Part shown: positions 7,501 through 35,121 of the stretch, in pieces
How the letters are laid out: each line of letters opens with the position of its first letter
Numbering within the stretch: the stretch's first letter is position 1
NCBI RefSeq assembly: GCF_004010195.1
Contig: NC_057758.1
Coordinates: forward strand, 9,689,033-9,728,393
Length of the DNA stretch: 39,361 nucleotides
Reading direction: 5' to 3'
Origin: Chiloscyllium plagiosum
Taxonomy: Eukaryota
Made by a program: the position numbers and the translations under genes
The notes under the pieces: model-generated
Told to the model about the DNA's origin: nothing
The model's input: only the letters and a program-made list of their open reading frames with translations
Database searches by the model: none

Positions 7501-10500
7501 GCATATGTGTGCAGACAGTTCCAAACTGCTCCTAAATCTGGTGATGGAGAAAGGATCTCCTGCCCGAAGGGTGATGTGGAAGTCCTTCGTGAAAATGCGC
7601 CATGTGGTACCAAAGTTGGACAAAATACTGAAACAAATACAAGAGCTTGGTACAATATCACTTACTGAATTCAATTTCTGATTCAATATTGCCGCTTTCA
7701 CCATTACACGGTTGAATTTCATAAAAGTCTTTTGATTTTTAAACAGGCTTGAATCCATTTGATACGGTGAAACTTACCCAAAGTTTGTCCAAAATACCCA
7801 ATCACCTGAAAGGTAAGAAATGAAATGTTGCTCTTAAACTGCATCTTGACTTCTGAAAACCAGAATGTTTGCCAGAACTGGGAATAGGGGAATTAATCTT
7901 ACCACAAATTCTCAGTGGCATTTTTATGAGATTCATGGGAGCTTTATTCCTGTGACCCCTCATGGGTTTTTTTGCATTCTTACCAAAATTAATTTATTAG
8001 CCATTTGCTTTGGTACCATCTGATGCTAGCCCAGTTCTCTCAATCACCATATATACCACTATCAAGATATCCTGGGATCCCTGGAACTGACCTTTGAACT
8101 GCAGCCATGCACCTTGTCATGCCATGGCAGTTTGGAGTTACTCTTTAATATGAACATCACAGGATTAATCGTAAATGAATGCTGCTCAGGCCACATGGCT
8201 GGCATAACAGAAACTTCCTTGAACATGGATCTGCACGTTTTTTTCATCCACAGGATGTGGGCATATTTGGCTCGGCTAGCATTTATCGACCGTCCCTAAT
8301 TGCCCAGAGACAATTTAAGAATTAACCACGTTGCTGTGTTTCTGGTCACATGTCGGCCAGAGCAGTTAAAGTTGACAGACTTCCTTCTCTAATGGATATC
8401 AGTGAACAAGACAGGTTTTCCCGACAATTGGCAGTGGTCATCATGATACCCTTAATTCCAGATTCTTTATTGATTTCAAATTCTGCCATCTGCAATGGTG
8501 GGATTTGAGCTGAATTTCCCAGAACGTTAGTTAAGTTTCTCGATTAATTCTCCACTGGTAATACCACTAGGTTATTGTCTCTCCTCTTATATGTCGCAGT
8601 TTAAATACCAAGCCAAACAATTCCTAATCACATCTCACTTTACAATGTTTTTTAAGTCACTTCTACTCTTTCTTCATGTTCTCATTGCCTAGTATCTTCT
8701 CATTGCTTAACGTAGGACCAACACATAAGGAGAGCCTTCAGTCGCTTCAGCAATCATTTTTATTCACCAGCAGGAAAAGTGAGTTATAAAAAAACCAAGC
8801 TATATTTGTGTCTCTGTGCAGAACTGCAGTGCTTGCCTTTTGAGCGCAAAAGTTTAGCAGTAAACGAAGATCATTTTCCCAGTTCTTGTCTACTGAAACT
8901 GAGTGACAACTGAGACCTGTCTGTCTTTTTGTGCCTAACACTGCCGCAGTCTTCCATTAGTACAATAAAAGAAGGTGATGTTCCTCCTACTCCATATCCT
9001 CATCTTCCTGCTTGGAAGACTGCTCCCACTCTCCTCGCTCAACAGACTCAGTCACATACCCTCCTATTCTGCCTCATTTGAGCAGACCATAGCATGCTAA
9101 GATTATGTGGCATAATGTGTACTGTACATGCTGTAAAGAACCCACAGACCAATCAAACAGCAAAACCTCACCTTCAGGCCTATTATCTGCTTTCATAAAG
9201 ACCCTGGTAGGAGAGTGGGATGCTTTGTATCTATGCTATACCTTAGTGGATCAGGGGATTTCCCTAACTATATTATTAGCCATTGTTAGAGTGGGTGCCT
9301 TAGTCTCCCATAACCATTCTTGTAAGGTCCCTCAAACATAAGAGAAACATGAGTTTCCAAGGATATATGCAGCAAATCAGTTCCAAGGATACCTAGCACA
9401 GGCTTGTAAGAAGATATACTAATGATCACGGGTAACCTTTTTGACTGCATTCTGATATGGCGCCCTCGAATCAACATGTGTCAGTATATCACACCTGCCA
9501 CCAGGGGAAAGGCAGCTATATTGCCAAAGCATACAGTGCAGGCTGCAGCACAGACCTCATCACAGGGAAAGGATATTATGCACTGTATGCTGGCACAAAT
9601 GGTATTGCTGGAGGCCTTAATACATTTACTGGTACACGGCTGAGAGATTTCTCACTGGTCCCCTTGGCTCTTTGGGATCCTCCTTGGTTAGAATAAACAA
9701 ACTTGTTGAGTCAGAGTCAGAGATGTACAGCATGGAAACAGACCCTTCAGTCCAACCCGTCCATGCCGATCAGATTTCCCAACCCAATCTAGTTCCACCT
9801 ACCAGCACCCGGTCCATATCCCTCCAAACCCTTCCTATTCATATACCCATCCAAATGCCTCTTAAATGTTGCAGTTGTACCAGCCTCCACCACATCCTCT
9901 GGCAGCTCATTTCATAGGAGAAAGTGAGGACTGCAGATGCTGGAGATCAGAGCTGAAAATGTGTTGCTGGAAAAGCGCAGCAGGTCAGGNNNNNNNNNNN
10001 NNNNNNNNNNNNNNNNNNNNNNNNNNNNNNNNNNNNNNNNNNNNNNNNNNNNNNNNNNNNNNNNNNNNNNNNNNNNNNNNNNNNNNNNNNNNNNNNNNNN
10101 NNNNNNNNNNNNNNNNNNNNNNNNNNNNNNNNNNNNNNNNNNNNNNNNNNNNNNNNNNNNNNNNNNNNNNNNNNNNNNNNNNNNNNNNNNNNNNNNNNNN
10201 NNNNNNNNNNNNNNNNNNNNNNNNNNNNNNNNNNNNNNNNNNNNNNNNNNNNNNNNNNNNNNNNNNNNNNNNNGAACCTGCACTCCAAGGTCTCTTTGTT
10301 CAGCAACACTCCCTAGGACCTTACCATTAAGTGTATTAGTCCAGCTAAGATTTGCTTTCCCAAAATGCAGCACCTCGCATTTATCTAAATTAAACTCCAT
10401 CTGCCACTTCTCAGCTCATTGGCCCATCTGGTCCAGATCCTGTTGTAATCTAAGTTAACCCTCTTCGCTGTCCACTACCCCTCCAATTTTGCTGTCATCT

Positions 10501-13500: not shown

Positions 13501-16500
13501 GATTGCAGGGACTGGATACTGCAGAAGCTATGGTCTGGCAATTGTACAGCAGACTTGTGCTATAGAACTTGTTGCATCCCTAGACTTGTTTACAAGGACA
13601 GTTACAATATTGGCACCTACTCAACAATGTGACCTAGGACCATTTGTCTTCAAGCGCTTCATCAATGATCTTCCCTCCATCAGAAGGTCAGAATTGAGGT
13701 TGTTCACCAATGATTGTGGAATGTTCAGCACCATTTGCATTTCACGTGCTGAAGCAGTCAATTTCCAAATGCGACAAGACCTAGACAATATCCAAGGTTG
13801 GTCTGAAAAATGGCATGTAGCAGTCACACCACACAAATGTCAGACAATTATCATCTCCCATAAAGGACAATCTACCTACCTTCTCCTGATTTTCAATAGC
13901 ATTGCCATCAATAAATCCACTATTACCAGCATCCTCGGATTTACCATTGACCAGGAATTCAACTCAATGGCCCATGTAAACACTGGTTACAAGAGTCGGT
14001 CAAAGGCTACTGTGTTGTGGACCAGGTCAGACCCATTAAAATATTTTAAGAAGGTAACCTAGACCCTAACTTTGCTTATTTTAAAGACCAGTGTGAAGTG
14101 GATATTCCAGGTGTGATGCAGCTGGTCAAACCACTCGGCTTTAAGCAAAACAGAATTAGTTTAAACAATACATTGATTAGGGATAGTCACCATGGCTTTG
14201 TGAGTGCGAAATCATTTCTCACTAACTTGAATGAGTTTTTTGAAGAAGTAACAAAGAAGATTGATGAGGGCAGAATGGTGGACGTGTTCTATATGGGCTT
14301 CAGTAAGGTGTTTGATAAGGCTCCTCATGATAGATGAGCTAGCAAGGATAGATCGCATGGAATACAGGGAGAACTAGGCATCTGGATACAGAACTGGCTC
14401 GAAGGTAGAAGAGAGAATGTGGAGGTCTGTGACCAGTGGTGTGCCACAAGAATCAGCGCTGGGACCATTGCTTTTTGTCATTTATATACAGTGTAAGTGA
14501 TTGGTTGGTTGTGGACAAGAAGGTATAGTTAGTAAGTTTGCAGAAGACACCAAAATTGTAGGTGTAGTAGACAGCAAAGAAGGTTACCTCAGAGTACAAT
14601 GGGATCATGATCAGATAGGTCAATGGACCGAGGAGTGGCAGATAGAGTTTAATAGAGATAAATGTGAGGTGCTGCATTTTGGAAAGGCAAATCAGGGCAG
14701 GACTTAATGATGAGGTCATGGGGAGTGTTGCAGAACAAAGAAACCGTTTGAGTGCAGGTTCATAGTTCTTTGAAAATGGAGTCGCAGGTAGATAGGATAG
14801 TGAAGAAGGCGTTTGGTATGCTTTCCTTTATTGGATAGAGCATTGTGTATAAGGGTTGGGAGGTCATGTTCAAGGGCATTGGTTAGGCCACTTTTTAAAT
14901 ACTGTGTGCAATTCTGGTCTCCATCCTATCTGAAGGATATTGTGAAACTTGAAAGGGTTCAGAAAAGATTTACAAGAATGTTGCCAGAGTTGGAGGGTTT
15001 GAGTTATAGGGAGAGGCTGAACAGGCTGGGGCTGTTTTCCCTGCAGTGTTGGAGCCTGAGGGGTGATCTTATAGAGATATGTAAAATCATAAGGGGAATC
15101 CATAGGATAAAGAGACAAGGTTCTGGGGTGGGGAAGTCCAGAAGTAGAGAGCTTAGGTTTTGGTTGCGAGGGTAAAAACGTACAAGCGACATAAGAAGCA
15201 ATTTTTTCACATACAGGGTGGTGCGTGTATGTAATGAGCTGCCAGAAGAAATGGTTGAGGCTGGTACAATTACAACATTTAATTGGCATCTGGATGGGTG
15301 TATGAATAGGAAGTTTTCTATGGAGATGGGTCAAATACTGACAAATAGGACTAGATTAGTTTAGGATATCAGGTCGGCATAGATGAGTTGGATCGAAGGG
15401 TATGGCTACAGTTGAAACAGGAACAAAAGAAAACAGAATTTAGAATAAATTAACTATTTGAAAACTCAACCAACTCAATACTGCATCTTAACTAAGGAGC
15501 TGTTCCAACTCCCACAACATCCCATAAACACACCCCTTGGCAAAAGGTAAATTCAAACACAGGTTCTTACAGGCAGGAGAGATTTCAGACCTTGTTCACC
15601 CTAATCCAACACTGGCACCTCCACGTCAACACTTTAAAAATTTACAAGAATTTGATTCCTTCGCCTTTTGAAGAATTGAGATTCAATGACAAGTGCCTTT
15701 GCGAGAAAATAGAAATTCTCCTTATCTATGTCTTAAATGGGCAATCATTCATCTTTAAAAGTGCCCAGATTCCAAGTTTGCCTACAATAGGAACCAAGCT
15801 TCCTGAAGGCAAACTGACAAGATACCTTAACACCTTTCTAGGTTTCAATTCTGTCACTTTATTCTCCATCCTGATAAAAGGGGAGCCAAAATACCTGCCC
15901 AGTCCAAATATTAGATGAGTGAAACAGCTGTAAACAGCCTCCAATGTATTTACATTCTTCATTCCATAAGTAGACCACTACTGTACAAAGTACACAAGTT
16001 CCCTGTATAACTGAAAAATAGGTTTCCGGCATGTACGCTCCATTTCTGATTTATTGCAAGGGGAATGCATTTATTTATTCTGATTTCCCTCTCACCTCAG
16101 AGCTCAGCAAACTGCTACCATTTAGATGCTTGGTTTTCTTATCTGCTAAAATTTCATACATTCTCACGTCATGCTGTGTTTGCCAGAACATAGGCTAAGC
16201 GAGTGGGAAATCAGTATCTGCTTGTAACGTCCCTTTATCATCAGCAAATTCAGCAATCATATGTTCAGTTCCTTCATCCTAGTGATTTATACAATTTGCA
16301 AAGCACTAATCCCAATGGCAGAGCATGTGTTACATATTGCAACAGAGCATGTGCACCATTTGTATTGACTCTGTTACCTGTTCGTTTGCCAATTTTCTAT
16401 CTGTCCCAATGTACTGTCCACAGACCATATCATGTAACATTGAATGTTTGATTTAAGTATTGTAATGCTGCAGTCAGGTCTTTATAATAGTGTTCAGATT

Positions 16501-19500: not shown

Positions 19501-22500
19501 CAGTTAGTTCAATATGTGTCCATCAGAATCAACAGGCTTTCTAAAGGGTAAATCATAATTGACTGATTTTGCGAGAGTTCCTCTAATAAGTTTGCGTCAC
19601 AGCTGGTTAGGTTGTTTAAAAAGGTGTTCAGCACGCATGCCTTTATTGCTTAGTCTTTTGAGTAAAGGAGTTGGGAAAAAGTGAGGACTGCAGATGCTGG
19701 AGATTAGAGTTGAAAAGTATGGCACTGGAAAAGCACAGCAGGTCAGACAGCATCCTTGGAGCAGGAGAATTGACATTTCAGGCATCAGCCCTTCTTCAGG
19801 AATGTGGGTGTTTTGGGAGGTGGAAGGGAGGTGCGAGATAAATAGAAGGGTGAGTAGGGGTGAGGTAGCTGGGAAGGTGATAGGTACATGCAGGTTGGGA
19901 GGGATGAAGGTGATAGGCCAGAGGGGAGGGAGGAGCAGATAGATGGGAAGGAAGATGGACAGGTAGGACAGTTCAAGAGGGCAGTGTGGAGTTGGAAATA
20001 TTATTAAGCTCGAGAGAATTCCGAAGGGATGAACCAGGATGTTGCCAGGTATGGTAGGTTTGACTTATAAAGAGAGGCTGAATGGCCTCGGACTTTTTTC
20101 ACTGGAGTGTAAGAGGTTGAGAAGTGACCTTATGGAAGTGTATGAAATCATGAAAGGTGTATATAGGCTTTTACCTAGATAGGGACTGGAAGATGAAGGG
20201 GCATGTTTTTAAGATTAGAGGAGGGAATTTTTTTTACAGAGGGTGGTTTGAGTGTGGAATGTACTTCCATCAGAAGTGGTGGATGTGAACACAGTTGCAA
20301 TGTTTCATAGACACTTAGCAAAGCACATGAATCCAAAACGTTTGGAAGGATATGGACCAGGAGCAGGCGGGTGGGACTAGTTTAGTTTGGCAGTGACTGG
20401 TTGGACCGAAGGGTCTGTTTCCATTCTGTATGACTCTAATAACAAGCAAAGTGAATAATTGAGATTCTGTAGATCTAGTATTTGGACTTCAAGAAGGCAT
20501 TTGATAAGGTGCCCCACAAAAGGTTTAAACACAAGGTGAAATCACATGGGGTTTGAGCTAATTTATTAGCTTGGAAACAAGATTGGCTAATCAACAGCAA
20601 GCAGAAAGTCTAGATAAATGGGGCTTTTTTCTGGTTAGCAAGACTTAACTCGTGGTGTACCACAAGATTTGGTCAACGGGCCCTAACTATTTACAAACTA
20701 TCTTGACAACTTAGATGCAGGGATAAAAAGTAAGAAGGCTATATTTGTAGGCCACACTAAAATAGATGGGAAACTTAGAATGAAGAAAGAAGATTTTTAT
20801 GAATGGATATGGATAAATTAAGTGAATGGACCAAACTTTGGCAGGTGAAGCTGAACATGGATAAGTGTGAGGTTATCCATTTTGATCAGGAGAATAGAAA
20901 GACAGATTATTATCTAAATTGAGAGAAACTTAAGGAAAACTCAGTTTTTTTTCTCTGTGGAGAAGCGAAGGTTGAAGGGAGACTTGATGGAAATATATTA
21001 AACCATGTGAGACATAGATAGTCTTGACGGTCAGAATCTTTTTCCCAGAGTTGAAATGACTATAAGTAGGGGTATGCATTTAACGTGAGGGGGGAAAGTT
21101 CAAAGGAGATGAGCGGGGCAAGATTCTTACACAGATATGTAGGTGTATGGAATGCACTGCCCGGGGTGGGGGTGGAGGCAGATACAATAGGGGCCTTTAA
21201 GAGACTTTTAGTTAAGCATATGAATCTTGAAGGGAATGGAGGGATGTGGACCAAGGACAGGCAGATGGGATTATGTATCATTTTCAGCACAACATTGTGC
21301 ACTGAAAGGCCCATTCCTGTGCTGTAATGTTCTATGTTCTAGTGCTTATGTAGCCCCATTCCAAGTTACTGAGGGAAGTGACAGAGGAAATAGCTAGGGC
21401 GTTAACAAATACCTTTGCAGCACGGGTGAGGTACTGGAGGACTGGAGAATTATTAATGTCCCCTTGTTTAAGAAGAGGAGCAGGGATAATCTAGGTATTT
21501 ATAGACTGGTGAGCATGATATCAGTGGTAGGGAAGTTGCTGGAGAAGATACTAAAGGATAGCATCTATTCCCATTTGGAAGAAAATGAACTTATCAGTGA
21601 TAGGCAACATGGTTTTCTGCAGGGAAGGTCATGTCTTAACCACATAATAGAATTCTTTGAGGAAGTGACAACGTTGATTGATGAGGGAAGGGTTGTAGAT
21701 GTCATGTACATGGACTTCAGAATGCATTTGATAAGGTTCCCCATGGTAGGCTGATGCAGAAAGCAAAGTCGCATGGGGTCCAGGGTGTACTAGCTAGAGT
21801 GATAAAGAATTTGCTGGGCAACAGGAGAAAAAGAGCAGTAGTGGAAGGGTGTTTCTCAAAATGGAGAACTGTGACCAGTGTTGTTCCACAGGGATCCATG
21901 TTGGGAACATTGTTAAAAATCACACAACACCAGGTGATAGTCCAACAGGTTTAATTGGAAGGACACTAGCTTTCGGAGCGACGCTCCTTCATCAGGTGGT
22001 TGTGGGGGACACAATTGTAAGACACAGAATTTACAGCAAAATTTCTTTAAATTCTGTCTTACAATTGTGTCCTCCACAACCACCTGATGAAGGAGCGGCG
22101 CTCCGAAAGCTAGTGTCCTTCCAATTAAACCTGTTGGACTTTCACCTGGTGTTGTGTGATTTTTAACTTTGCACACCCCAGTCCAACACCAGCATCTCCA
22201 AATCATGGGAACATTGTTGTTTGTGATATACATAAATGATCTAGAGGAAGGTATAGGTGGTCTGATGACACCTAAGATTTGCAGATGACACCTAAGATTG
22301 ATGGAGAAGCAGATATTGAAGGAGACTGTCGAAGAATATGGATAGATTGGAGATTTGAACGAAGAAATGGCAGATGAAGTTCAGTCCAAGCAAATGCGAA
22401 GTGATGCGTTTTGGAAGATTCAATTCAAGAGCAAATTATACAGTAAATGGAAAAGTCTTGGGGAAAATTCATGTACAGAGCGATCTGGGTGTTCAGGTCC

Positions 22501-25500
22501 ATTATTCCCTGAAGGTGGCAACACAGGTCAATAGAGTGGTCAAGAAGGCATATGGCATGCTTTCCTTCATTGGACAGGGTATTGAGTGAAAGATATGGCA
22601 GGTTACGTGACAGTTGTATAAGACTTTGGTTCATCCACATTTGGAATACTGCGTACAGTTCTGGTCGGTACATTACCAAAAGGATGTGGATGCTTTGGAG
22701 TGGGTGCAAAAGAGGTTCACCAGGATGTTGCCTAGTACGGAGGGTGCTAGCTCTAAAGAAAGGTTTATTTTCATTAGGATTAGGATTATTTTCATTAGAA
22801 AGGTGGAGGTTGAGGGGGAACCTGATTAAGGTCTACAAAATCATAAGAGGTATACACAGGGTGGATAGCCAGAAGCTTTTTCTCGGAGTGTCGGACTCGA
22901 TTACTAGGGTCACGGGTTCAAGGTGAGAGTGGGAAATGTTCGAGAGATATGCATGGCAAGTTCTTTACACAGAGGCTGGTGGGTGCCTCGAACACGTTGC
23001 CAGTGGAGGTGGTAGAGGCAGAGGCAGGCACAATAGAGTCATTTAAGATGCATGAATTGGCAGGAAGCAGAGGGATACAGATCCTTAGAAATAGGTGACA
23101 GGTTTAGAAAGAGGTTCTGAATCGGCGCAGGCTTGGAGCGCTGAAGGGCCTGTTGCTGTGCTGTAATTTTTCTTTGTTCTTCTGGGTGTCATCATGCATG
23201 AATCATAAGAAACTTGTATGTGGATACAGCAGATAATGAGAGGCGCAAATGGAATAGACAGGATAGATAGATATAAGCTTTTTCCTTAGGTGAGGGATTC
23301 AATAATAAGAGGTGAGAGGTGAAAAGTTTAAGGGGGATATACGTGGCAAGTACTTTATACAGAGGGCGGTAGGTGCCTGGAATGCATTGCCAGCAGAGGT
23401 AGTATTCATTTAAGGTGCGTCTGGACAGATGCATGAGTAGGTGGGGATACAGATGCTTAGGAATTGGGCAATATGTTTAGACAGTGGATTTAGGTCAGCT
23501 CAGGCTTGGAGGGATGAAGCACCTGCTCCTGGGCTGTAAATTTTCTTTGTTCTCTTTGTTCTTTGGAATTTTGGCATGTATTGCTAAAGGAATAAAATGT
23601 AAAAGTAAGAAAGCATTGCTGCAACTGTTTGAGGCATTAGTGAGACCTCATCTGGAGTAGTGCATACAACTTTGGTCACCTTACTTTATGGATTTATTTT
23701 ACTTGGAGCACTCCAGAGAAGGTTCACGAGATGGATTTCAGATAGGTGAGGTTTGTCTTATGAAGGCAGATTGAGCAGTACAAGTATATTATCCGGAATT
23801 AGAAAAATGAGAGGAGATCTAATTGACGTGATACTGAAGGGGATTGTCAAAATACATCGAGAGGATGCTTCCTTGTGGGGCAATCTAATGAGAGGTCATA
23901 GTTTTAGGATACATATAGCGCAATTAAAATCACGATGAGCAGTCAACATAATCGAAGACCCTTCCAACCCAGTATTGCTCTTCCATCCTCTTCCATCAGG
24001 CAGGAGATACAAAAATTTGAAAACACATACCAATAGATTCAAGCACAGCTTCTTCCCTGCTGTTTTCAAACTTATGAACAGACCTCACAATATTCAAGTT
24101 AATCTTTCCCTGCACATTCTGTGCAGCTGTGACATTGTATTCTACAATGTTTCTCTGATGTATTTCTGTAAACTATTTGTCTGGTTAGCATGCAACACAA
24201 TACTTTTCTCCGTATCTTAGTACATATGACGATAGTGAATCAAATCATCAAATCAATTACTTCTCTCGAATGATTGAAAATCAACGGAATTCACAATCCT
24301 AGAGTGAGGTGGATGCAGGGACAGTGAATAAATTAGGAGATTAAGAAAGAAAATCATATTTGTTCAAATTTCCATGATCAATAGAAATTTGAATCAAAAC
24401 TTTTTTGCCATCACTGACTTTCAATTGAGATTTCAAAAACATTTACATTCCTAGACCCACTTGGGTTAAATCTGTGACTTAAATTTTGTAACATTTTATC
24501 ATGTCATGAAATAGCATTGAGAACTACTTTTAATAACATTGCAACTAACATTGAGAATCACTTCCTCCCTGTTCGAATTACAGTTCTTCAACAGAAACAC
24601 AAGGAGACGCTACAGATCCAAACAGAAACGCTGAGAGTGAACACGATCCAAATAAAAGAGAAAGTGAAGACTTTCCAGCTGGTTGATCGGTATGCTGAGC
24701 TAACGATCATTTCTACTGTTCGGGATCGAACCCTTGTAGAACATGAACTGCTGGCAAGAGGCCGAGACCATGAAGAGTGGAGAGAGAAACACCTCTGGAG
24801 AGAACTGGAAAAAATCCAAACTGATCAGTTGTTCCAGAGCAACTTTTCCCAGAAAAAGTTCACTTCTGGGAGAACAGTGGCAGTGAGTGGGGTCCCAGGG
24901 ATTGGAAAAACAACAATGCTCCAAAAGATAGTTTATGACTGGGCCACCGGGAAAATCTACCAACACTTTCAATTTGTTTTCTATTTCAAGTTCCGAGATT
25001 TGAACACTATTAACTGTAGTATAAACCTGAAGAATCTGATACTGGAACAGTATCCTTATTTTCAGAATGTTCTGGGAAATCTTTGGAAGAACCCAGAGAA
25101 TTTACTGTTTATATTTGATAGTTTGGATGAATTCAGGGAGAGGATAGATTTTTCTGACAACCTGAGGCCTCAGTCTGTATGCACAGATCCCGAATATTGG
25201 TGTGAAGTGTCTGACATTGTGTACAGTTTAATCCAACACAAGCTGCTTCCAGGGTGCTCAGTGTTGGTGACCACTCGTCCGACTGACTTAGTTTTATTGG
25301 AAAAGGCTGAAATCAGTATGTGGGCTGAAATCCTGGGATTTGCTGATGATGATCGGAAGGAATATTTCAACAAGTTTTTTGAAGATCAGACAGTGGCAGC
25401 AGCTATTTATAACCACCTGAAGGAGAACGAAATCTTGTACACCATGAGCTATAACCCTTCGTACTGCTGGATCCTCTGTCTATCACTGGGTCCCTTCCTT

Positions 25501-28500
25501 GCACAATGTGACAGGAAAGAACAAAAAGTTCCCAAAACCATCACCCAACTGTATTCCTACTATATTTACAACATTCTGAAACACCATGGCCGAGAGATTG
25601 AAAACCCCCGTGGTGTGTTACTGAAGCTCGGTGAGATGGCCTTCAAAGGAATCTCTGAGAAAAAGATTGTCTTTAGAAATGGAGAGTTGATCCAATACGA
25701 TCTACAACCTTCTCAGTTCCTGTCTGGGTTCCTGATGGAACTTTTGGAGAGAGATGATTCAGTCCAGAGTGTGATTTACACATTCCCACACCTCACCATC
25801 CAAGAGTTTGTAGCTGCACTTGCACAATTCCTGACTCCAGATCCCACGGACATTCAGAAACTCCTCAGCATTGCTTACAGTGAGGCAGATGGCCGTTATC
25901 AGATATTTCTCCGTTTTGTTATTGGTCTGACCTCCCCACAGTCAGCTTGCCCCCTGGAGGAATTTCTGGGTCCATTTCTTCATCAGACAACCTGCCGAGT
26001 GATTGACTGGGTGAAGGAGATGGCTGAAGGACAGGTTCGAAATACAAGGAGCAACACTGGTAAAAGGGACTTTCTGAACATATTGCAGTACCTCTTTGAA
26101 TCTCAGAATAAAGCATTAGTTTGGACCACAGTGAGATCCATGGAAACACTCGCATTTAGTAGATTGCAACTGACACCAGTTGACTGCTTTGTTCTGTCAC
26201 ATGTCATTGGACTATGTGAAACAATAAAACTTCTTGATCTCGAGAACTGTTATATTCAGCATGAAGGACTGCAGCGACTGGCCTCAGTACTGTACAAATG
26301 CAGGGAGCTGAGGTAAGTTTTTTTTTACTCTTTCGGATAAGTTGTAGAGCAATCATGTGATGTTCATTTTCCTTCTCCATGGATACATTTTACTGAAAGC
26401 AGAGGGAAACAGATTGAGCACAAATATAACCCATGTAAAACAATCAGTTTGTAACTCGGTTCATAACTGAACATGTGAAGCTGATTTTTCAGAACAATTA
26501 GAAAGTTTGCCCGAAAGGCAATGAACCATTTAAATTAAATTGTATTAAGTACAGTTGAAAAATGGACAGGAAATAGGAATATTACATGGCTGAATAACAA
26601 TTAATTTAAAATATATTCCACATCTCCGATTTTAAGTAGAAACAATGGGAACATAACATTATAAAATGGTTTGATATTTATTGCAGTGTTTTTAATTGTC
26701 TTGTTGGAAGAGTGAGGGGGGTGAGGGCTAAAAAGAGAAAGCGATGGCCTAGTGATATTATTATTTGACTGTTAACCCAAAGATGCAGATAATATATGGG
26801 AGACCCAGCTTCAAATCACACCATGGCAGATGTTGGAATTTGCATTAAATAAATATCTGGAATTAAAGAGCTTAATGATGACCATAAGTCCATTGTTGAT
26901 CATCAGAAAACTCCTCTACTCCACTAATGTCCTTTCGGAAAAGAGACTGCCGCCCTTACCCGCTCTGCTGTACACGTGACTTCAGACCCACAGCAATGTG
27001 GGTAACTCTTAACTCTCCTCTAGGCAATAAATGATAGTCCAGCCAGTGACACCCAAATTCTGTAAATGAATAAAGAACAATTATTGGGAAAATATGACAA
27101 GTTTCAGCTCTAAGTCTATATAATTATTGAATTTATTTACTTTTCTAAACTAAAATACATTTGGGAGTTTTAAGTATACAGGTATAATGGCTCATGATGC
27201 ATTGTCCCAGGATTTCAGACGTACACCAGCTAGCATTGGAGCCTCATGCATTGTGAGTATATACTGACCAGAATGGGGAAGTGAATCTGGCAATCACCCT
27301 TTATCCAGACCTGCATGTGAGATGCTGATCACACAGGCAACTTCTGAAAATTTCCCAATAACTGTCAAGACAGCTGTACCCGAAATACATGTATAACCAT
27401 TCTAATGGGACCAGAATAACATTGTCCTGATGCAGTTTTGAACTTGCGGAACTGGGCACATTTAAAACACATACTGGGAAAATGAACAACCTTGTAAGAT
27501 AAAATCCTCAATAATAATCTTGAAGCAACAGTTTGCTCCATTTCTCAAAGTAACACAAGCCTCAGTCATTTTAAAGGTCAAATACTTTTTATAATTAAAT
27601 TCAGAGATGCTCACGTGACCCAATAAATCTACTATTTAAGGAGCAACAGATATTGTTACATTGTTGCCGATGTGAAAACTGAGTCACAATTAAGTAGAAT
27701 GAATGGCTTTGAGGTATGTAGGGAAGAGGTGTTGGAAATTCTGGAAAGGGTGAAAATAGATAAGTCCCCTGGGCCTGATGGCATTTATCCTAGGATTCTC
27801 TGGGAAGCAAGGGAGGAGATTGCAGAGCCATTGGCCTTGATTTTTATGCCCTCTTTGTCTACAGGAGTAGCCCCAGAAGACTGGAGGATAGCAAATGTGG
27901 CTCCCTTGTTCAAAAAGGGGAGTAGGGATAACCCCAGTAACTATAGGCCNNNNNNNNNNNNNNNNNNNNNNNNNNNNNNNNNNNNNNNNNNNNNNNNNNN
28001 NNNNNNNNNNNNNNNNNNNNNNNNNNNNNNNNNNNNNNNNNNNNNNNNNNNNNNNNNNNNNNNNNNNNNNNNNNNNNNNNNNNNNNNNNNNNNNNNNNNN
28101 NNNNNNNNNNNNNNNNNNNNNNNNNNNNNNNNNNNNNNNNNNNNNNNNNNNNNNNNNNNNNNNNNNNNNNNNNNNNNNNNNNNNNNNNNNNNNNNNNNNN
28201 NNNNNNNNNNNNNNNNNNNNNNNNNNNNNNNNNNNNNNNNNNNNNNNNNNNNNNNNNNNNNNNNNNNNNNNNNNNNNNNNNNNNNNNNNNNNNNNNNNNN
28301 NNNNNNNNNNNNNNNNNNNNNNNNNNNNNNNNNNNNNNNNNNNNNNNNNNNNNNNNNNNNNNNNNNNNNNNNNNNNNNNNNNNNNNNNNNNNNNNNNNNN
28401 NNNNNNNNNNNNNNNNNNNNNNNNNNNNNNNNNNNNNNNNNNNNNNNNNNNNNNNNNNNNNNNNNNNNNNNNNNNNNNNNNNNNNNNNNNNNNNNNNNNN

Positions 28501-31244
28501 NNNNNNNNNNNNNNNNNNNNNNNNNNNNNNNNNNNNNNNNNNNNNNNNNNNNNNNNNNNNNNNNNNNNNNNNNNNNNNNNNNNNNNNNNNNNNNNNNNNN
28601 NNNNNNNNNNNNNNNNNNNNNNNNNNNNNNNNNNNNNNNNNNNNNNNNNNNNNNNNNNNNNNNNNNNNNNNNNNNNNNNNNNNNNNNNNNNNNNNNNNNN
28701 NNNNNNNNNNNNNNNNNNNNNNNNNNNNNNNNNNNNNNNNNNNNNNNNNNNNNNNNNNNNNNNNNNNNNNNNNNNNNNNNNNNNNNNNNNNNNNNNNNNN
28801 NNNNNNNNNNNNNNNNNNNNNNNNNNNNNNNNNNNNNNNNNNNNNNNGGTTGACAGTGAGAATCTTTTTCCACGTATGGAGTCAGCTATTACGAGGGGGC
28901 ATAGCTTTAAATTAAGGGGGGGGGGGGTAGTTATAGGACAGATGTTAGGGGTAGGTTCTTTACTCAGCGAGTTGTGAGTTCATGGAATGCCCTGCCAGCA
29001 GCAGTGGTGGACTCTCCCTCTTTATGGGCATTTAAGCGGGCATTGGATAGGCATATGGAGGATAGTGGGCTAGTGTGGGTTAGGTGGGCTTGGATCGGCG
29101 CTACATCGAGGGCCGAAGGGCCTGTACTGCGCTGTATTCTTCTATGTTCTATGTTAAACATGTCTGTGAACAATGCAGGCATCGGTCACCAAAGCGCAAT
29201 GAACTCTGTCTGCTCAAGGAGATAAAGTTTGGTCATAGGAAATCATACTGGACTGAAGGATATTAAACAACTTCACATGGACAGGACAATATGATGAAAC
29301 GCTGTCATAGATGGTGCTTGAACATTTTGAGAACTGAACAGCATAGAATAGTTCGTCATTGACATGAAAATCTGAGTATTAATTTCCTTAAGTTTGTTCA
29401 ATGTTTTACAGCTGAGAGCAAAATAACATCAGAGGCAGAATTTCATTCACAGTGTTTCTCATTATTTCTTTGCATTTAGATTGAGGAACAATGATCTGGG
29501 GAATCCAGCAGTGAAACTGTTGTCTGAAGCACTGAGGAGCTCAGATTGTCAAATAGAAAAACTGCAGTAAGCATCAAATTGTGTATGATTTTTCCGAAGC
29601 AGGAAATCTAATAATGTGCATTATCACCAGTTGGAATGTTATTAATAGCTACTGCCCATCATTCTTAACATCTGAATTCCATTCTGTCCATCTGTATTAG
29701 TATCAATAATAATGTTAACAATAAACACCAAGGACGTACACTTCTGTTATTCCTATCTGTTTTGATCACTAGGCTGAATGATAATGACCTCACCGCTTCC
29801 TGTGCCCAGGATCTTGCCTCAGCTCTCAGTACAAACCAGTCATTGATAAGTCTGAATCTGGGTGAAAATAAATTAGGAGATTTTGGAGTAAAACAACTGT
29901 TTGGGGTTCTGAGGAATGTGAACTGCAAACTGCAGGAACTGGTGTAAGTACCAGACAGAGAGATTGTATTAAGAATAACTGGAGGTCTAACACTAAGCAT
30001 TATTATCATTATGAATCATAAAGTTTTGAGCAAACAATCGGAATTATCCTAATTTATGTTATTTGTTTCTCTCGCTCTCCATTACCCTCTCTTCCCAACC
30101 CTCCATATTCCCAGGCTGCATGATAATCATCTCTCACATTCTTGTATTGAAGATCTCACCTACGCACTCATTACAAATCAGTCATTGACTGTTCTAAACC
30201 TTGGTAACAATAAACTGGGAGATACAGGAGTGAAACTGCTAAGTGTGGCATTGAATAACCCAACTTGCAAAATTCTGGAACTGGGGTAAGAATGACAATT
30301 TGTTCTTGTGTTTATCTTCTCTAATAGAATCGTACGGGAATCCCTGGGTGGATCCAATACCACTCTTGTTCCTTTTTATTGTTAGTCTAAGCTACTGATC
30401 CTAAGGATGGCCACATTAGGTCTTTGTTCAAGGAAAGGCTCAATTGTGATAAACAAATGGAATTGTAACTTGGTACTTAATAGCTCATCACAAATAATGA
30501 AAATAAAAAAGAATCTGAGGTAATACGTCAGGCTATACTTCAAAGTACACCAGCTTCTACTGAAGCATTATGGTTACAGCTTAGAAACAACTAACAGCTA
30601 GATAGCTGCTCCCAGGAACAAAGTTAAAAATCTGGCAACACTAGATTATAATCCAACAGGTTTAATTGGAAGCACTAGCTTTTGGCGCACTGCTCCTTCA
30701 TTAGGTTGTTGTGAGCCTGGTGTTCTGTGATCCCATTGGTGTTTTTAGATAACCATTGGGAGTTTTGTCTAAATCTTGCTATTATTCATGTTTTCTCTCT
30801 CTCTCTCCTTCTGGTGTGTAGTCTGTGGGGTGCCAGTCTCTCAGATTCTTGTACTAAGGATCTTGCATGTGCTCTCAGTACAAACCAGACACTGACCACT
30901 CTGAAATTGGGAACGAATCTCTTCACAGACCAATCTGTCCCAGCCATCAGCCATCTCATTCTGAACTGCAGGAGTTTGGAGCGGATTGAGTGAGTCTTTA
31001 TAACGTTCAATGTAATGAATAACATATAAGTAGGATTCATTCTCTTCTGGACTGTATTTGTTTGTAGTTATTGTTGAAGTATTAACCCATATTTTTCTTT
31101 TCTTGACTGTTTAGCTCCCTAGTTTTAATTCCTAAAACATCTTTAATCTGTTTCAGACTGTGGGAAAACCAATTCACTCCAACTGGAAAGAGACACCTAG
31201 AGTCAATGCGGGAATCCAGGCGCAAACTGAAGGTGGTCGTGTGA
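1353..31244 (+). CDS. Multi-exon NOD-like receptor (N-terminal helical/death-fold-like domain + FISNA-like + NACHT + LRR; 'NLRP3/NLRC3-like' elasmobranch type), ~933 aa
   Basis: Joined exons 1353-1502, 7478-7649, 7747-7812, 24584-26312, 29480-29566, 29773-29943, 30115-30285, 30822-30989, 31157-31244. All introns are GT-AG with matching phases; total 2802 nt, open to TGA at 31242-31244. The true start codon may lie in an upstream exon. Confidence 0.9.
1772..2424 (-). mobile_element. Solo-LTR-like repeat, copy 1
   Basis: Begins TGTTATGGACCAGGCCAGACC and ends ...atattgtca; non-coding; homologous to 14013-15590, 33012-33505 and 35122-35695. Confidence 0.65.
2425..3916 (+). mobile_element. Long CR1 LINE: ORF1 SGNH-esterase domain, start of ORF2 APE endonuclease, assembly gap, 3' tail
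   Basis: VIGDSIVRG (2508-2534), VCCLPG, DGLYL; ORF2 start [13 protein letters not shown]...DVVAISETW; tail catctctatgactctatga follows the gap. Confidence 0.88.
3913..4478 (-). mobile_element. Penelope-like element RT fragment, inverted arm
   Basis: Minus ORF with [14 protein letters not shown]; reverse complement of ~4494-5051. Confidence 0.9.
4494..6051 (+). mobile_element. Penelope-like element (RT + GIY-YIG endonuclease + 3' pLTR), 5'-truncated and frameshifted
   Basis: [55 protein letters not shown]...RIHEH; hammerhead-like motif near the 3' end. Confidence 0.93.
5977..6014 (+). ncRNA. Degenerate minimal hammerhead ribozyme motif in PLE 3' end
   Basis: CA-CTGATGA-tGTTACC-tagtat-GGTGAC-TCAAC-GTC-TG; the expected GAAAC reads TCAAC, so probably inactive. 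Confidence 0.7.
6927..7226 (+). mobile_element. tRNA-derived V-SINE (HE1-like) with CR1-type tail
   Basis: A-box tggcacagtgg, B-box gggttcaattccc, V-domain gtgtggagtttgcacattctcc...gggtgctccagtttcctccc, tail gggccgaaaggcctgtttccacactgt. Confidence 0.88.
7478..7649 (+). CDS. NLR exon 2: second half of N-terminal domain ([57 protein letters not shown])
   Basis: Acceptor ttcttcacAG at 7476-7477, donor G|GTACAA at 7650; phase 0-1; amphipathic helical peptide. Confidence 0.85.
7747..7812 (+). CDS. NLR exon 3: 66-bp linker ([22 protein letters not shown])
   Basis: Acceptor tttttaaacAG at 7745-7746, donor AAAG|GTAAGA at 7813; phase 1-1, open frame. Confidence 0.8.
8240..8580 (-). mobile_element. 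Second tRNA-headed SINE family, degenerate copy
   Basis: Reverse complement aligns by eye with 26741-27075. Confidence 0.7.
9708..10600 (-). mobile_element. CR1 LINE fragment (RT to 3' tail), interrupted by a PLE-derived repeat (9915-9989) and a gap
   Basis: Minus ORFs [21 protein letters not shown]...SKFADDSKI and [14 protein letters not shown]; tail at 9708-9760. Confidence 0.88.
10905..14010 (+). mobile_element. Old non-LTR retrotransposon of a second lineage (APE + RT), split by a nested insertion
   Basis: APE remnants ([30 protein letters not shown]; resumes [25 protein letters not shown] at ~12800) and RT remnant [14 protein letters not shown]...LFTNDC...[13 protein letters not shown]. 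Confidence 0.75.
11645..12795 (-). mobile_element. Non-coding retroposon with 10-bp TSD and (ATTC)n tail; contains nested SINE (~11880-12150) and CR1 3' (~12158-12352) fragments
   Basis: ATGTACTTGA direct repeat at 11635-11644 and 12796-12805; minus-strand end ...tttcactgtactcaatcaagtacatgtaacAATAAAgc...ttcattcattca. Confidence 0.7.
14013..15590 (-). mobile_element. Solo-LTR-like repeat, copy 2, split by a CR1 insertion and truncated
   Basis: TGTTGTGGACCAGGTCAGACC at 14013; homology resumes at ~15405 (acaacatcccataaacacaccccttggcaaaaggtaaattcaaacacag). Confidence 0.65.
14173..15403 (+). mobile_element. CR1 LINE RT/3' fragment
   Basis: [48 protein letters not shown]; stops and frameshifts. 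Confidence 0.9.
16750..16990. repeat. Degenerate ~38-39-bp tandem minisatellite (~6 units, plus one more at ~17785-17815)
   Basis: Recurring gaaaccctgtacacacctggcaggatcctga(c)cactgt variants. Confidence 0.75.
16986..17785 (+). mobile_element. CR1 LINE 3' fragment
   Basis: [42 protein letters not shown]; tail ggactatgact. Confidence 0.88.
18341..18656 (-). mobile_element. tRNA-derived V-SINE (HE1-like), well preserved
   Basis: Reverse complement: gggcggcacggtggcacagtggttagcactgctgcctcacagcgccagagacctgggttcaattcccgcc...; homologous to 6927-7226. Confidence 0.9.
19677..19995 (-). mobile_element. PLE-derived repeat (family also at 9915-9989) with hammerhead-like motif at 19767-19804
   Basis: Shared aaagtgaggactgcagatgctggagat...ggaaaagc(a/g)cagcaggtcag; minus strand reads ATTC-CTGAAGA-aGGGC-tgat-GCCT-GAAAT-GTC-aatt. 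Confidence 0.7.
21964..21998 (-). ncRNA. Minimal type I hammerhead ribozyme motif (intact core)
   Basis: Minus strand CAC-CTGATGA-a-GGAGC-gtc-GCTCC-GAAA-GC-TA-GTG. Confidence 0.85.
22081..22115 (+). ncRNA. Minimal type I hammerhead ribozyme motif (intact core)
   Basis: CAC-CTGATGA-a-GGAGC-ggc-GCTCC-GAAA-GC-TA-GTG: stem I CAC/GTG, stem II GGAGC/GCTCC, palindromic AGCT stem III. Confidence 0.85.
23938..24255 (+). mobile_element. Rex1/Babar-like LINE 3' fragment inserted into CR1
   Basis: [46 protein letters not shown], then tail ...tcttagtacatatgacgatagtgaatcaaatcatcaaatcaa. Confidence 0.8.
24584..26312 (+). CDS. NLR exon 4: FISNA-like region, NACHT NTPase, HD1/WHD/HD2 and first LRR
   Basis: Lies within the 599-aa ORF. 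Walker A GVPGIGKT (24889-24912), Walker [12 protein letters not shown] (D at 25117), sensor-1 VLVTTR, winged-helix [12 protein letters not shown]. Acceptor ttacAG at 24582-24583, donor AG|GTAAGT at 26313. Confidence 0.97.
26741..27075 (+). mobile_element. Second tRNA-headed SINE family copy
   Basis: A-box-like tggcctagtga, B-box-like gcttcaaatc, body cttacccgctctg...gtgacttcagacccacagcaatgtgg, A-rich end gaataaag. Confidence 0.72.
27685..29155 (+). mobile_element. CR1 LINE ORF2 fragment spanning an assembly gap
   Basis: [14 protein letters not shown]...[26 protein letters not shown]; after the gap, [14 protein letters not shown] and (tctatgt)n tail. Confidence 0.92.
29480..29566 (+). CDS. 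NLR exon 5: single LRR ([29 protein letters not shown])
   Basis: 87 bp, phase 2-2, tttAG acceptor and GTAAGC donor; RI-type LRR. Confidence 0.9.
29773..29943 (+). CDS. NLR exon 6: double LRR
   Basis: 171 bp, phase 2-2 ([42 protein letters not shown]...), GTAAGT donor. Confidence 0.93.
30115..30285 (+). CDS. NLR exon 7: double LRR
   Basis: 171 bp, phase 2-2 ([42 protein letters not shown]...), long pyrimidine tract + cccAG acceptor, GTAAGA donor. Confidence 0.93.
30621..30714 (-). mobile_element. Single-arm degenerate copy of the hammerhead-bearing element, in NLR intron 7
   Basis: gttaaaaatc...ccaacaggtttaattggaagcactagc...gctccttcattagg; minus-strand core mutated (CTAATGA; GAAA reads AAAA). 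Confidence 0.8.
30822..30989 (+). CDS. NLR exon 8: double LRR
   Basis: 168 bp, phase 2-2 ([55 protein letters not shown]), GTGAGT donor. Confidence 0.92.
31157..31244 (+). CDS. NLR exon 9: terminal LRR cap ([28 protein letters not shown])
   Basis: tttcAG acceptor at 31155-31156, phase 2 entry, TGA at 31242-31244. Confidence 0.88.
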
Positions 31245-31324: not shown

Positions 31325-33012
31325 TGATGTGCTGTATGTGCATTTCAGCAAGGCGTTCGATAAGGTTCCCCACAGTAGGCTATTGTACAAAATGCGGAGG
31401 AATGGGATTGTGGGAGACATAGCAGTTTGGAGCAGTAATTGGCTTGCTGAAAGAAGACAGAGGGTGGTGGCTGATGGGAAATGTTCATCCTGGAGACCAG
31501 TTCCCAGTGGTGTACCACAAGGGTCGGTGTTGGGTCCACTGCTGTTCATCATTTTTATAAACTACCTGGATGAGGGCGTAAAAGGGTGGGTTAGTAAATT
31601 TGCAGATGACACGAAGGACGGTGGAGTTGTGGATAGTAACGAAGGATGTTGTAGGTTACAGAGAGACATAGATAAGCTACAGAGCTGGGCTGAGAGTTGG
31701 CAAATGGAGTTTAATGCGGACAAGCGTGAGGTGATTCACTTTGGTCGGAGTAACCGAAAGCAAAGTACTGGCCTAATCATCAGATTCTTGGTAGTGTAGA
31801 TGAGCAGAGAGATCTCGATGTCCAGGTACACAGATCCTTGAAAGTTACCACCCTGGTTGACAGGGTTGTTAAGAAGGCATACAGTGTTTTAGCTTTTATT
31901 AATAGAGGGATCGAGTTCCGGAACCATGAGGTTATGCTGCAGCTGTACATAACTCTGGTACGGCCACACTTGGAGTATTGTGTACAGTTCTGGTCACCGC
32001 ATTATAAGAAAGAGTTAAACTTTGGAAAGGGTGCAAAGGAGATTTACTAGGATGTTGCCTGGTATGGAAGGAAGGTCTTACGAGGAAAGGCTGAGGGACT
32101 TGAGGCTGTTTTCATTAGAGAGAAGAAGGTTGAGAGGTGACGTAACAGAGACATATAAGATAATCAGAGGGTTAGATAGGGTGGACAGGGAGAGCCTTTT
32201 TCCAAGTACGGGGACGGTGAGCATGAGGGGGCATAGCTTTAAATTGAGGGGTGATAGATATAGGACAGATGTCAGAGGTAGTTTCTTTACTCAGAGAGTA
32301 GCAAGGGTATGGAATGCTTTGCCTGCAACGGTAGTAAATTCGCCAACTTTAAGTACATTTAAGTCTTCATTGGACAAGCATATGGATGTACGTGGAGTAG
32401 TGTAGGTTAGATGGGGTTCAGATTGGTATGACAGGTCGGTGCAACATCGAGGGCCGAAGGGCCTGTACTGCGCTGTAATGTTCTATGTTTTATGTGTTCA
32501 GTTTTGGTCGTCTTGGTATAGGAAGCATATTATTAAATTGGAAAGAGTGCAAAAGAAATTTATCAGGATTTTGCCAGGACTCAAATGTCTGAGTTATAGG
32601 GAGAAATTAGACAAGCTAGGATTTTTTTCTTTACAGCGTAGTAGGAGACTGAGGGGGTGTGGGTATCTCCTAGAAGTGTATAAGATCAATAGAGGCATGG
32701 ATAGGATGAATGCAGTCTTTTTCTCAAATCAAAGACTTGAGGGCATCAGTTTAAGATTAGAGAGGAAAGAATAAAAGGGAACCTGAAGGGCAACATTTTT
32801 ACCGAGGATCGTACACATATGGAAGGAGCTGCCAGAGGCGTGTACACAAACAACATTTAAAAGGCATTTGGAGAAATACATGGATAGTAAAGGATTACAA
32901 GGATATGGGCCAAGTGCATGGAAATGGGGTTAGCATTCATGGACATTTTGGTCAGTGTTGGTTGTTTCGGGCCAAAGGGCCTGTCTCCCTGATGTAGGAC
33001 CCTATGACTCTA
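31325..33012 (+). mobile_element. Two adjacent CR1 fragments (31325-32492, 32493-33012) starting ~80 bp after the NLR stop codon
   Basis: [46 protein letters not shown]; two 3' tails. Confidence 0.92.
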
Positions 33013-33505: not shown

Positions 33506-34430
33506 CTTGTGAGTCACTACCTCTAATTTTATTAAAATGCTATAAGTAAACACCACAAATGTTTCTTTCCTGTATGACATGTGTTACATGCTTGTATTTA
33601 CATATTTTATTATTTACTTTAACTTTCTCAAATTGAACTTGTTACAATGCTGGCCATATATTCTTTAAGGGTGTTTTGTTCATTGAAACAGGTTAATTCT
33701 AGTTCTGGTTAATGCTCATCCGTGCTTGGCATTTGTTCTCATTGTGGCTTTGGATAAGTGGTTTAGTGAGAGCAAAGTGTTGCAGATGCTGCAAGTCTAC
33801 AATTAAAAAATAATACACAGCAAACAGTCTACTCCAATTAACTGTTGCAAAAATATTTGCATCATCTATAACTACAGGTGAGGTGCCTGATGACTGGAGG
33901 GTGACTCATCGTGTACCTTTGTTTAAGAAAGATTGTCAGGAGAAACCGGGGACCTATGGACCAGTGAGTCTGACTTCAGTTGTGGGTAAATGCTTGGAGG
34001 TGATCCTAAAAGATAGGATTTATGAATATTTAGAGAGAGGCAAAAAATGATTTGGGATGGTCAGCATGGTTTTGTGCAAGGAACATCATGTCTCACAAAA
34101 TTGATTGAATTTTTTGAGGAAATTACCAAAAAGATTGATGGGAGAGCAGTATTTTATTTGTTGTTTATTTGGATTTTAATCAGGCTTTTTGACAAGGTTC
34201 CGCATGATAGAATAATCAGCAAAATGAGGTAATGTGGGATCCAGGATGACCTTGCCAATTAGATACATAATTGGTCAAAGACAGAGTAATAATGGAGGGT
34301 TGCTTTTCAGACTGTAGGCCCATGACCAGCAGTGTTCCACAAGAATCTAGGTTCTCTTCTGCTTGACATTTATATAAATGATTTGGATGAGAAAGCATGG
34401 TTAGTAAGTTTGTGGATGACACCAAAATTA

Positions 34431-34632
34431 GTTAAAAATCACACAACACCAGGTTTAATTGGAAGCACACCAGCTTTCGGAGCGTCGGTCCTTCATCAAG
34501 TGATAGTGATCACCTGATGAAGGAGAGACGATCCGAAAGTTAGTGTGCTTCCAATTAAACCTGTTGGACTATAATTTGGTGTTGTGTGATTTTTTTCAAC
34601 TTTGTACACCCCAGTCCATCTCCAAATCATGG
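34431..34632. mobile_element. Second palindromic hammerhead-bearing element with TSD
   Basis: CCAAAATTAGT repeated at 34422-34432 and 34633-34643; + strand motif CAC-CTGATGA-aGGAgagacgaTCC-GAAA-GT-TA-GTG at 34511-34545; minus-strand core reads TTGATGA. Confidence 0.88.
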
Positions 34633-35121
34633 CCAAAATTAGTGGCATAGTAGACAGTGAAGAAGGTGTTCAAAGATTACAGAGGGACCTCGATCAAATG
34701 GTTCAATACTGAAAAAATCTGTATAGATGTGAGATATTGCATTTTGATTCAACAAACAAGGCTAGGGCATGTACAATTAATCGTAGTGCCCTGGGTAGTG
34801 TTGTAGAAGAGAAGGACCCCAGCGGTGCAGGTACACAATTCTTTGAAGTTTGCATCAGATACAAACAGGGTGGTCAGAAAGAGGTTTGACACACCACTTT
34901 ATTTCTTGGTCCTTTGAGTATAGGAGTTGGGAAGTCATGTTGAGGTTGTACGGGACATTGGTGAGGCCTTTTCTGGAATATTGTGTCCAGTTCTGGTTAC
35001 CCTGTCGTAGGAAGTACATTATCAAGCTGGACAGAGTTCAGAAGAGATTTACCAGGATGTTGCTGGGTAAGGAAGGTTTGAATTATAAAGAAAGGCTGGA
35101 TAGGCTGGGACTTTGCTCACT

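Follow-up and report, generated by a model that had tools for sequence, protein, structure and literature searches.

A palindromic insert with a minimal hammerhead motif in Chiloscyllium plagiosum as a probable truncated Penelope-like element stub

Within a stretch of 39,361 nucleotides from Chiloscyllium plagiosum, hereafter the window, a palindromic insert carries a minimal hammerhead motif on each of its strands. We conclude that this insert is very probably a severely 5'-truncated stub of a high-copy Penelope-like element (PLE), presumably of the Neptune type, which was built in place at its target and not copied as a unit. The locus itself is ordinary: both its insertion layout and its ribozyme variant are known, and only the host family is new.

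The insert is bracketed by a perfect 13-bp direct repeat (21902-21914 and 22206-22218, both on the + strand) and consists of two inverted arms and a tail at one end only. The left arm (21912-22040, - strand) is an inverted, 5'-truncated and tail-less copy of a PLE 3' end, and the right arm (22041-22167, + strand) is a likewise 5'-truncated copy in direct orientation. Over 21912-22024 and 22055-22167, i.e. 113 nt each, the arms are 97% complementary; with one 2-nt gap allowed, they can be followed to the centre near 22040 with 6 mismatches in 127 aligned positions. At the fold-back junction (22024-22057), the centre is formed by a short run of A and T near 22037-22043 that is self-complementary. 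On the right side, the arm continues into an AC-rich tail of 38-40 nt (22168-22207, + strand; 38 nt when counted to 22205), to which the left side has no counterpart. As up to three bases per end may belong to the element, as indicated by copy 2 (see below) and by the family termini at 22205-22207, the last three bases of the left repeat copy are possibly the element's left terminus, and the target duplication, at most 13 bp long, was refined to 7-13 bp.

The insertion is hosted by the decayed RT region of a CR1-type LINE (+ strand; approximate span examined 21398-22500; RVT_1, E 2.5e-6). Once the insert and one repeat copy were deleted, the CR1-type RT motif continued in one frame across the flanks, and the reconstructed empty site aligned over the junction with other CR1 copies of the window, e.g. 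10601-10276 (65%) and 31491-31546 (75%). A first-pass annotation of the sequence had described a tailed palindromic insert, a flanking direct repeat of 10-13 bp and a clean split of a CR1 RT motif, and all three are confirmed by these data. Just 3' of the insert, the host CR1 also bears a small tandem duplication (22264-22299) with 16-nt copies 20 nt apart.

A generic minimal-hammerhead descriptor matched the window at exactly two places, 22081-22115 (+) and 21998-21964 (-), compared to a chance expectation of 0.03 on average and 1 at maximum in 100 Markov-1 simulations. The annotated presence of a hammerhead motif on both strands was thus borne out, as was its description as a minimal hammerhead with a palindromic stem III; the two type I motifs are mirror copies of each other and count as one observation. 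In the + motif, a helix I of 3 bp (22081-83/22113-15) encloses the core (22084-90), an unpaired A (22091), a helix II of 5 bp (22092-96/22100-04), the stretch 22105-08 and a palindromic helix III remnant (22108-11). Following standard hammerhead numbering, cleavage would occur after 22112. The motif thereby displays the traits of PLE hammerheads, namely the conserved core, the unpaired base before helix II, the G10.1-C11.1 pair and the palindromic positions 15.2-16.2. Helix I, with 3 bp in the shark copies and 5 bp in two metagenome relatives described below, is shorter in the shark than the 4-5 bp looked for, which narrows the assignment to a short-helix variant. Helix II together with its loop forms a near-perfect palindrome, and at the loop centre (22098) T and A variants, both of which occur in the family, mirror each other.

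An Infernal search had been proposed as a check of the motif; with Rfam it returned no hammerhead family up to E 10, whether the query was 2 kb or 81 nt long, which we attribute to the missing helix III. On the insert, only microRNA matches far below the gathering scores were obtained, and these are explained by the hairpin shape. None of the 10 helix pairs showed compensatory changes in seven sequences, among which there is too little variation, and the other three shark arms each fail the hammerhead descriptor. The family consensus retains the hammerhead core: among family variants of at least 4%, the list includes a single core position, G12, which is part of a CpG (9-12%), and the variation is located in loop II and at CpG sites. 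We rejected the quiet core positions as a sign of selection, as non-core, non-CpG positions are equally quiet.

Across 241 million metagenome records, the hammerhead pattern was matched only twice, by L001 and L002, which represent one family from marine metagenomes (99.6% identical over 677 nt). Upstream of the hammerhead, L001 contains an inverted RT piece (RVT_1, E 1.5e-5) and L002 a GIY-YIG-like ORF with a CX3CxxC linker. The latter ORF was not recognised by Pfam and was assigned by its motifs and its relatives P0001-P0003, among which P0003 joins a GIY-YIG-like domain to an RT. A CX2-5CxxC linker before a C-terminal GIY-YIG was seen in L002, P0001 and P0003, all of which are tied to the shark family by terminus similarity only. 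Such a linker marks Neptune and Nematis and is absent in Penelope/Poseidon (PMC8557442). The shark motif and those of L001 and L002 are identical at 34 of 35 positions, with 24 of these bases fixed by the pattern itself, and the 3' ends stay colinear past the motif, so that the link spans about 35-75 nt. As judged from this similarity, the shark parent element is probably a Neptune-type PLE. The near-identical hammerheads with a 5-bp helix I at L001 969-1003 and L002 1331-1365 may point to strong constraint or to horizontal transfer.

The window also contains a decayed PLE remnant of its own (3913-6050), which has RT motifs and a weak GIY-YIG match (E 0.043) and is probably of the Penelope/Poseidon type. 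Its 5' part is present as a long inverted pair (3913-4478 vs 4494-5051), the layout of the insert at a larger scale, and a decayed, different hammerhead-like motif is located near 5976. We rejected this remnant as the partner of the insert, as its hammerhead differs, it has no nucleotide match to the insert and no CxxC linker was seen.

Two further copies of the shark family were identified in the window. Copy 2 (34422-34643, + strand), which likewise lies inside a CR1 RT, has a tail, a different centre and shorter arms, which differ at 10 of 76 positions, and it is flanked by an 11-bp duplication (34422-34432/34633-34643). Copy 3 (30619-30731, - strand) is older and consists of an inverted arm of about 95 nt and a very short direct piece; it had no clear tail or duplication. 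All three copies begin their left arm at the same tail-less point and have three different centres. In addition, a 43-nt piece at 15581-15623 resembles the tail (74%, E 0.032) and is perhaps the end of a related subfamily.

Part of the insert sequence was present in 20 of the 24 listed sequencing runs (12 studies, four organism labels). Contigs from runs of this set were aligned to 22030-22280 at 80% likeness, a level at which misalignment occurs, and 42,072 (X1, DNA), 41,724 (X4, DNA) and 8,417 (X15, guessed to be RNA) of them aligned, including some on the CR1 flank. In the raw single-cell RNA run X22, no read aligned among the roughly 6% covered, too small a share to count against expression. 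Behind 22205-22207, 1,808, 1,419 and 375 contigs continued in flanking sequences that are unrelated to each other (agreement 0.35-0.39), and the family terminus is thereby fixed at this site. The summed contig depth was not taken as copy number; extrapolation from three copies in 39 kb suggests that the family is in the order of 1e5 copies. Among the 15 joints listed out of 50, a change of strand occurs in 13, no two of which use the same pair of places, and the insert's own centre was matched by none of the 15. As de Bruijn contigs under-report symmetric palindromes, these joints are no full census, and a sub-family with a fixed centre is conceivable. A low-depth signal (about 6.7) over the centre bin 22039-22047 occurred in X1 and X4 and may stem from this locus or from a second copy.

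The contigs also provided information on how the arms relate to each other. Both arms have a C at 22143, where the family has an A in 96% of the depth in X1 and X4, and a C at 22117, where the family has a G in 72-93%. These two minority variants, being common to both arms, suggest that the arms likely come from one template lineage. Scans of viral contigs and of prokaryote genomes gave no match, nor did a scan of metagenomes with the terminus pattern. In the literature we found no description of this shark family, leaving aside a possible existing Dfam/Repbase name or an unseen supplement entry.

According to the first-pass annotation, a transcript of the insert from either direction contains a ribozyme, which turned out to hold for the letters but not for the predicted fold. 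When 22078-22120 is folded by itself, helices I and II are predicted to form with probabilities of 0.83-0.93, and in the context of a single arm with tail the hammerhead fold costs 4.2 kcal/mol. In the full insert, this penalty amounts to 61.9 kcal/mol on both strands, and the whole sequence is predicted to fold into one hairpin (MFE -227.9 kcal/mol, z -30.6, 0 of 100 shuffles as stable). During transcription of the + strand, the predicted fraction of hammerhead bases that pair with the arm made before them, as they emerge, is 94-99.9%. As the complementary arm is transcribed first on either strand, the ribozyme would be trapped, and as each transcript holds one sense motif, the motifs being on opposite strands, no dimer would form in cis. 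Self-pairing of the helix III remnant is predicted to yield only -4.5 kcal/mol; a fold computed for two copies resulted in a duplex other than the hammerhead and was left out of account. In read-through RNA, the folding models thus predict a ribozyme that is locked in a hairpin of about 125 bp and would not cleave.

Different routes may lead to such a palindrome. As the earlier annotation had proposed, the insert might be a palindromic, non-autonomous derivative of a PLE whose full length is transcribed and then retrotransposed. Non-autonomous PLE derivatives exist, and the clean duplication, the near-perfect arms and the minority variants common to both arms would be in line with this, as would the low-depth signal over the centre in X1 and X4, if derived from a second copy and not from the locus itself. 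However, the centres differ in all three window copies and in all 13 listed strand-switch joints, no listed joint lies at the insert's centre, and the RNA of such an element would be one -228 kcal/mol hairpin that hides its ribozyme. We therefore consider propagation as a whole unlikely, and the window copies together with the listed strand-switch joints do not support a mobile 'unit'. A single PLE end might instead have been inserted, with the palindrome made later by local DNA fold-back or repair. This would agree with centres at short self-complementary runs and, again, with the minority variants that the arms have in common, but both arms of copy 1, and likewise of copy 2, are enclosed by one target duplication, and the tail-less start of the left arm is the same in three of three window copies. 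A single bracketing duplication and a common left start point to a single insertion event, which renders a later fold-back very improbable.

Mutator/Foldback-like MITEs have long inverted repeats and a duplication of 9-11 bp; in MITEs the inverted repeats lie flush with both duplications, the duplication has a constant length and the interior is uniform. A DNA transposon of this kind, with a hammerhead motif present by chance or by capture, would account for the long inverted arms, the lack of an ORF, the high copy number and the compatible duplication size. Yet in copies 1 and 2 a 38-nt tail lies between the right arm and the duplication, neither the duplication length nor the centre is constant, and the motif closely matches the hammerhead at the 3' end of a PLE, so that this origin appears the least probable of all. 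The one-sided tail, the duplications of 13 vs 11 bp and the variable centres support the annotated view that the insert was retrotransposed and is no DNA-transposon MITE. Its annotated PLE origin is likewise supported, by a layout that fits published PLE insertions and by the near-identity to the hammerhead of a metagenome PLE. As to retrozymes, which consist of head-to-tail units with same-strand hammerheads, we found one motif per strand in a head-to-head arrangement.

The favoured reading, a truncated PLE stub built in place, agrees with the features of PLE insertion units that are present here: an inverted 5'-truncated copy adjoining a direct copy, a tail at one end (38-40 nt in copy 1, also present in copy 2), a variable duplication with maxima of 13 bp and 11 bp in the two copies, and a hammerhead motif in the terminal repeat. 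Such a stub may have been assembled in the following way. The GIY-YIG endonuclease of a partner element would make staggered cuts in A/T-rich DNA, as the duplication suggests, and the RT would then start at two sites flanking the tail, which would yield one tailed and one tail-less end. Synthesis would halt early, soon after the hammerhead has been passed, and a short self-complementary run, where the centres are indeed seen, would serve to join the two copies. The hammerhead would be a passenger from the parent's terminal repeat. Cutting of both strands in vitro and two RT start sites flanking the tail have been shown for an anole element (PMC11167929). With regard to priming, we slightly favour a start from both cut target ends, with the cDNAs annealing mid-way, over fold-back self-priming, to which we assign a little less than an even chance. 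Priming from both target ends directly explains why the tail occurs at one end only; the minority variants common to the arms are explained equally well by fold-back self-priming or by later arm-to-arm conversion. Both-end priming has a parallel in the twin priming of L1, and our literature search found no paper that applies twin priming to PLEs.

Among the 13 listed strand-switch joints, nine leave at 22072-22083 and three resume at 22118, near the predicted cut. The latter position lies five bases past 22113, with which the predicted 3' cleavage product begins. We regard this as no more than a lead, and the signal at 22118 is confounded by a 2-nt subfamily deletion at 22116, which breaks the alignment at the same place. 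We tentatively put forward, as a rather doubtful extension, that the stubs are primed from both target ends and that the hammerhead sets the cDNA stops, so that one arm would often end at the ribozyme cut and the other 1-12 bases before the core is reached, on its upstream side. If true, the shark genome would hold a huge natural record of this step of PLE integration, and cleavage by a minimal hammerhead of a PLE would for the first time have left a trace in vivo.

With the mutation rate of the epaulette shark, 7e-10 per generation (PMC10587355), the three mismatches in 113 nt translate into about 1.9e7 generations (Poisson 95% range 3.9e6-5.5e7) and, over both uncertainties, into a range of 1.9e6-2.8e8 generations, assuming that the arms were identical at insertion and underwent no conversion. 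For the dating we disregarded the low-depth signal that covers the centre bin in two organisms. Copy 2 is older than the insert, which itself is not recent; the earlier characterisation as 'recently active' is not upheld, as the three arm mismatches imply millions of generations.

Regarding the genomic surroundings, a large exon (24478-26316) encodes a NACHT domain, the best relatives of which are NLR proteins of Chiloscyllium punctatum (96%), Hemiscyllium ocellatum (90%) and other sharks. Upstream exons of the NLR gene were located by tblastn at 1326-1532, 7475-7669 and 7746-7811, and the window thus holds a multi-exon NLR (NACHT-LRR) gene on the + strand (1326-31241). Going by these exon positions, one of the gene's introns, a long one, probably contains the insert, and copy 3 is probably intronic in this gene as well. 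The two tailed copies, whose left duplication copies are at 21902-21914 and 34422-34432, lie at nearby motifs within the RT core of a CR1 remnant. ATT, the preferred site of the anole PLE endonuclease (PMC11167929), is present in both duplications; these are two cases only, and CR1 is abundant.

These results have some practical consequences. Stubs of this type resemble MITEs or microRNA hairpins, which calls for caution in annotation, and if many such hairpins were intronic, much double-stranded RNA might arise from them in sharks. The family may also serve as a data set with tens of thousands of short junctions to count. Counting them could answer by which route inverted PLE ends arise and which role the hammerhead of PLEs plays, questions that were posed by PMC11167929, PMC3846280 and PMC8557442.

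PLE insertions have been described as strongly truncated at the 5' end, in many cases next to a truncated copy in inverted orientation, and with a tail of 30-40 bp at one end (PMC8557442, Craig et al. 2021). For PLE units with duplications of 8-10 bp and palindromes at the inverted junction, self-priming was proposed (PMC3846280, Arkhipova et al. 2013). The insert is like these endonuclease-positive units in having an inverted and a direct copy, a one-sided tail, a short duplication and a junction palindrome (PMC3846280, PMC8557442). It is unlike them in that its copies are cut to about 125 nt, are non-coding and look like a MITE, and its duplication measures 7-13 bp as compared to 8-10 bp in the rotifer examples (PMC3846280).

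Minimal hammerheads of metazoan PLEs occur as opposite-strand pairs 100-700 bp apart, and a PLE minimal hammerhead did not cleave as a monomer and cleaved at a low level as a dimer (PMC4209133, Cervera and De la Pena 2014). The insert's motif agrees with these hammerheads in its intact core, the unpaired base before helix II, the G-C closing pair, the palindromic 15.2-16.2 and the lack of a stable helix III. Its helix I has 3 bp as compared to 4-5 bp in the schistosome consensus and 2 bp in D. virilis, and its helix II has 5 bp as compared to 7-8 bp in the hammerheads of PMC4209133. Sharks are not named in a portion of the main text and one supplement file of that study, and the accessible part of PMC6155905 mentions them only regarding the ribozyme's name.

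In Anolis carolinensis, the hammerhead of the Poseidon element PAc cleaved only in the presence of the protein and is dispensable for insertion, and no RNA reads ended at the cut (PMC11167929, Frangieh et al. 2024). PAc and the insert are alike in an AC-rich tail between two ends, an A/T-rich target and a hammerhead just upstream, and the insert's tail corresponds to the stretch between the two RT start sites of PAc. They differ in that PAc belongs to another clade and has another hammerhead sequence; its inverted products were left unexplained in the part of the paper cited here.

The Neptune-type ends from marine metagenomes resemble the insert in their hammerhead and their colinear 3' end. 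L001 and L002 differ from the insert by their longer helix I, by RT or endonuclease coding sequence and by a long 3' non-coding region, and the sequence downstream is only loosely similar. In sharks, an expansion of Penelope-like elements has been reported for whale-shark introns (10.1101/443036). Non-LTR retrozymes, which occur in the one cartilaginous fish sampled, are like the insert small, non-coding, hammerhead-bearing and related to PLE terminal repeats (PMC7229834; bioRxiv 10.64898/2026.07.22.740005). They form head-to-tail arrays with same-strand hammerheads and give rise to circular RNAs (same sources), whereas the shark insert is built head-to-head with one motif on each strand.
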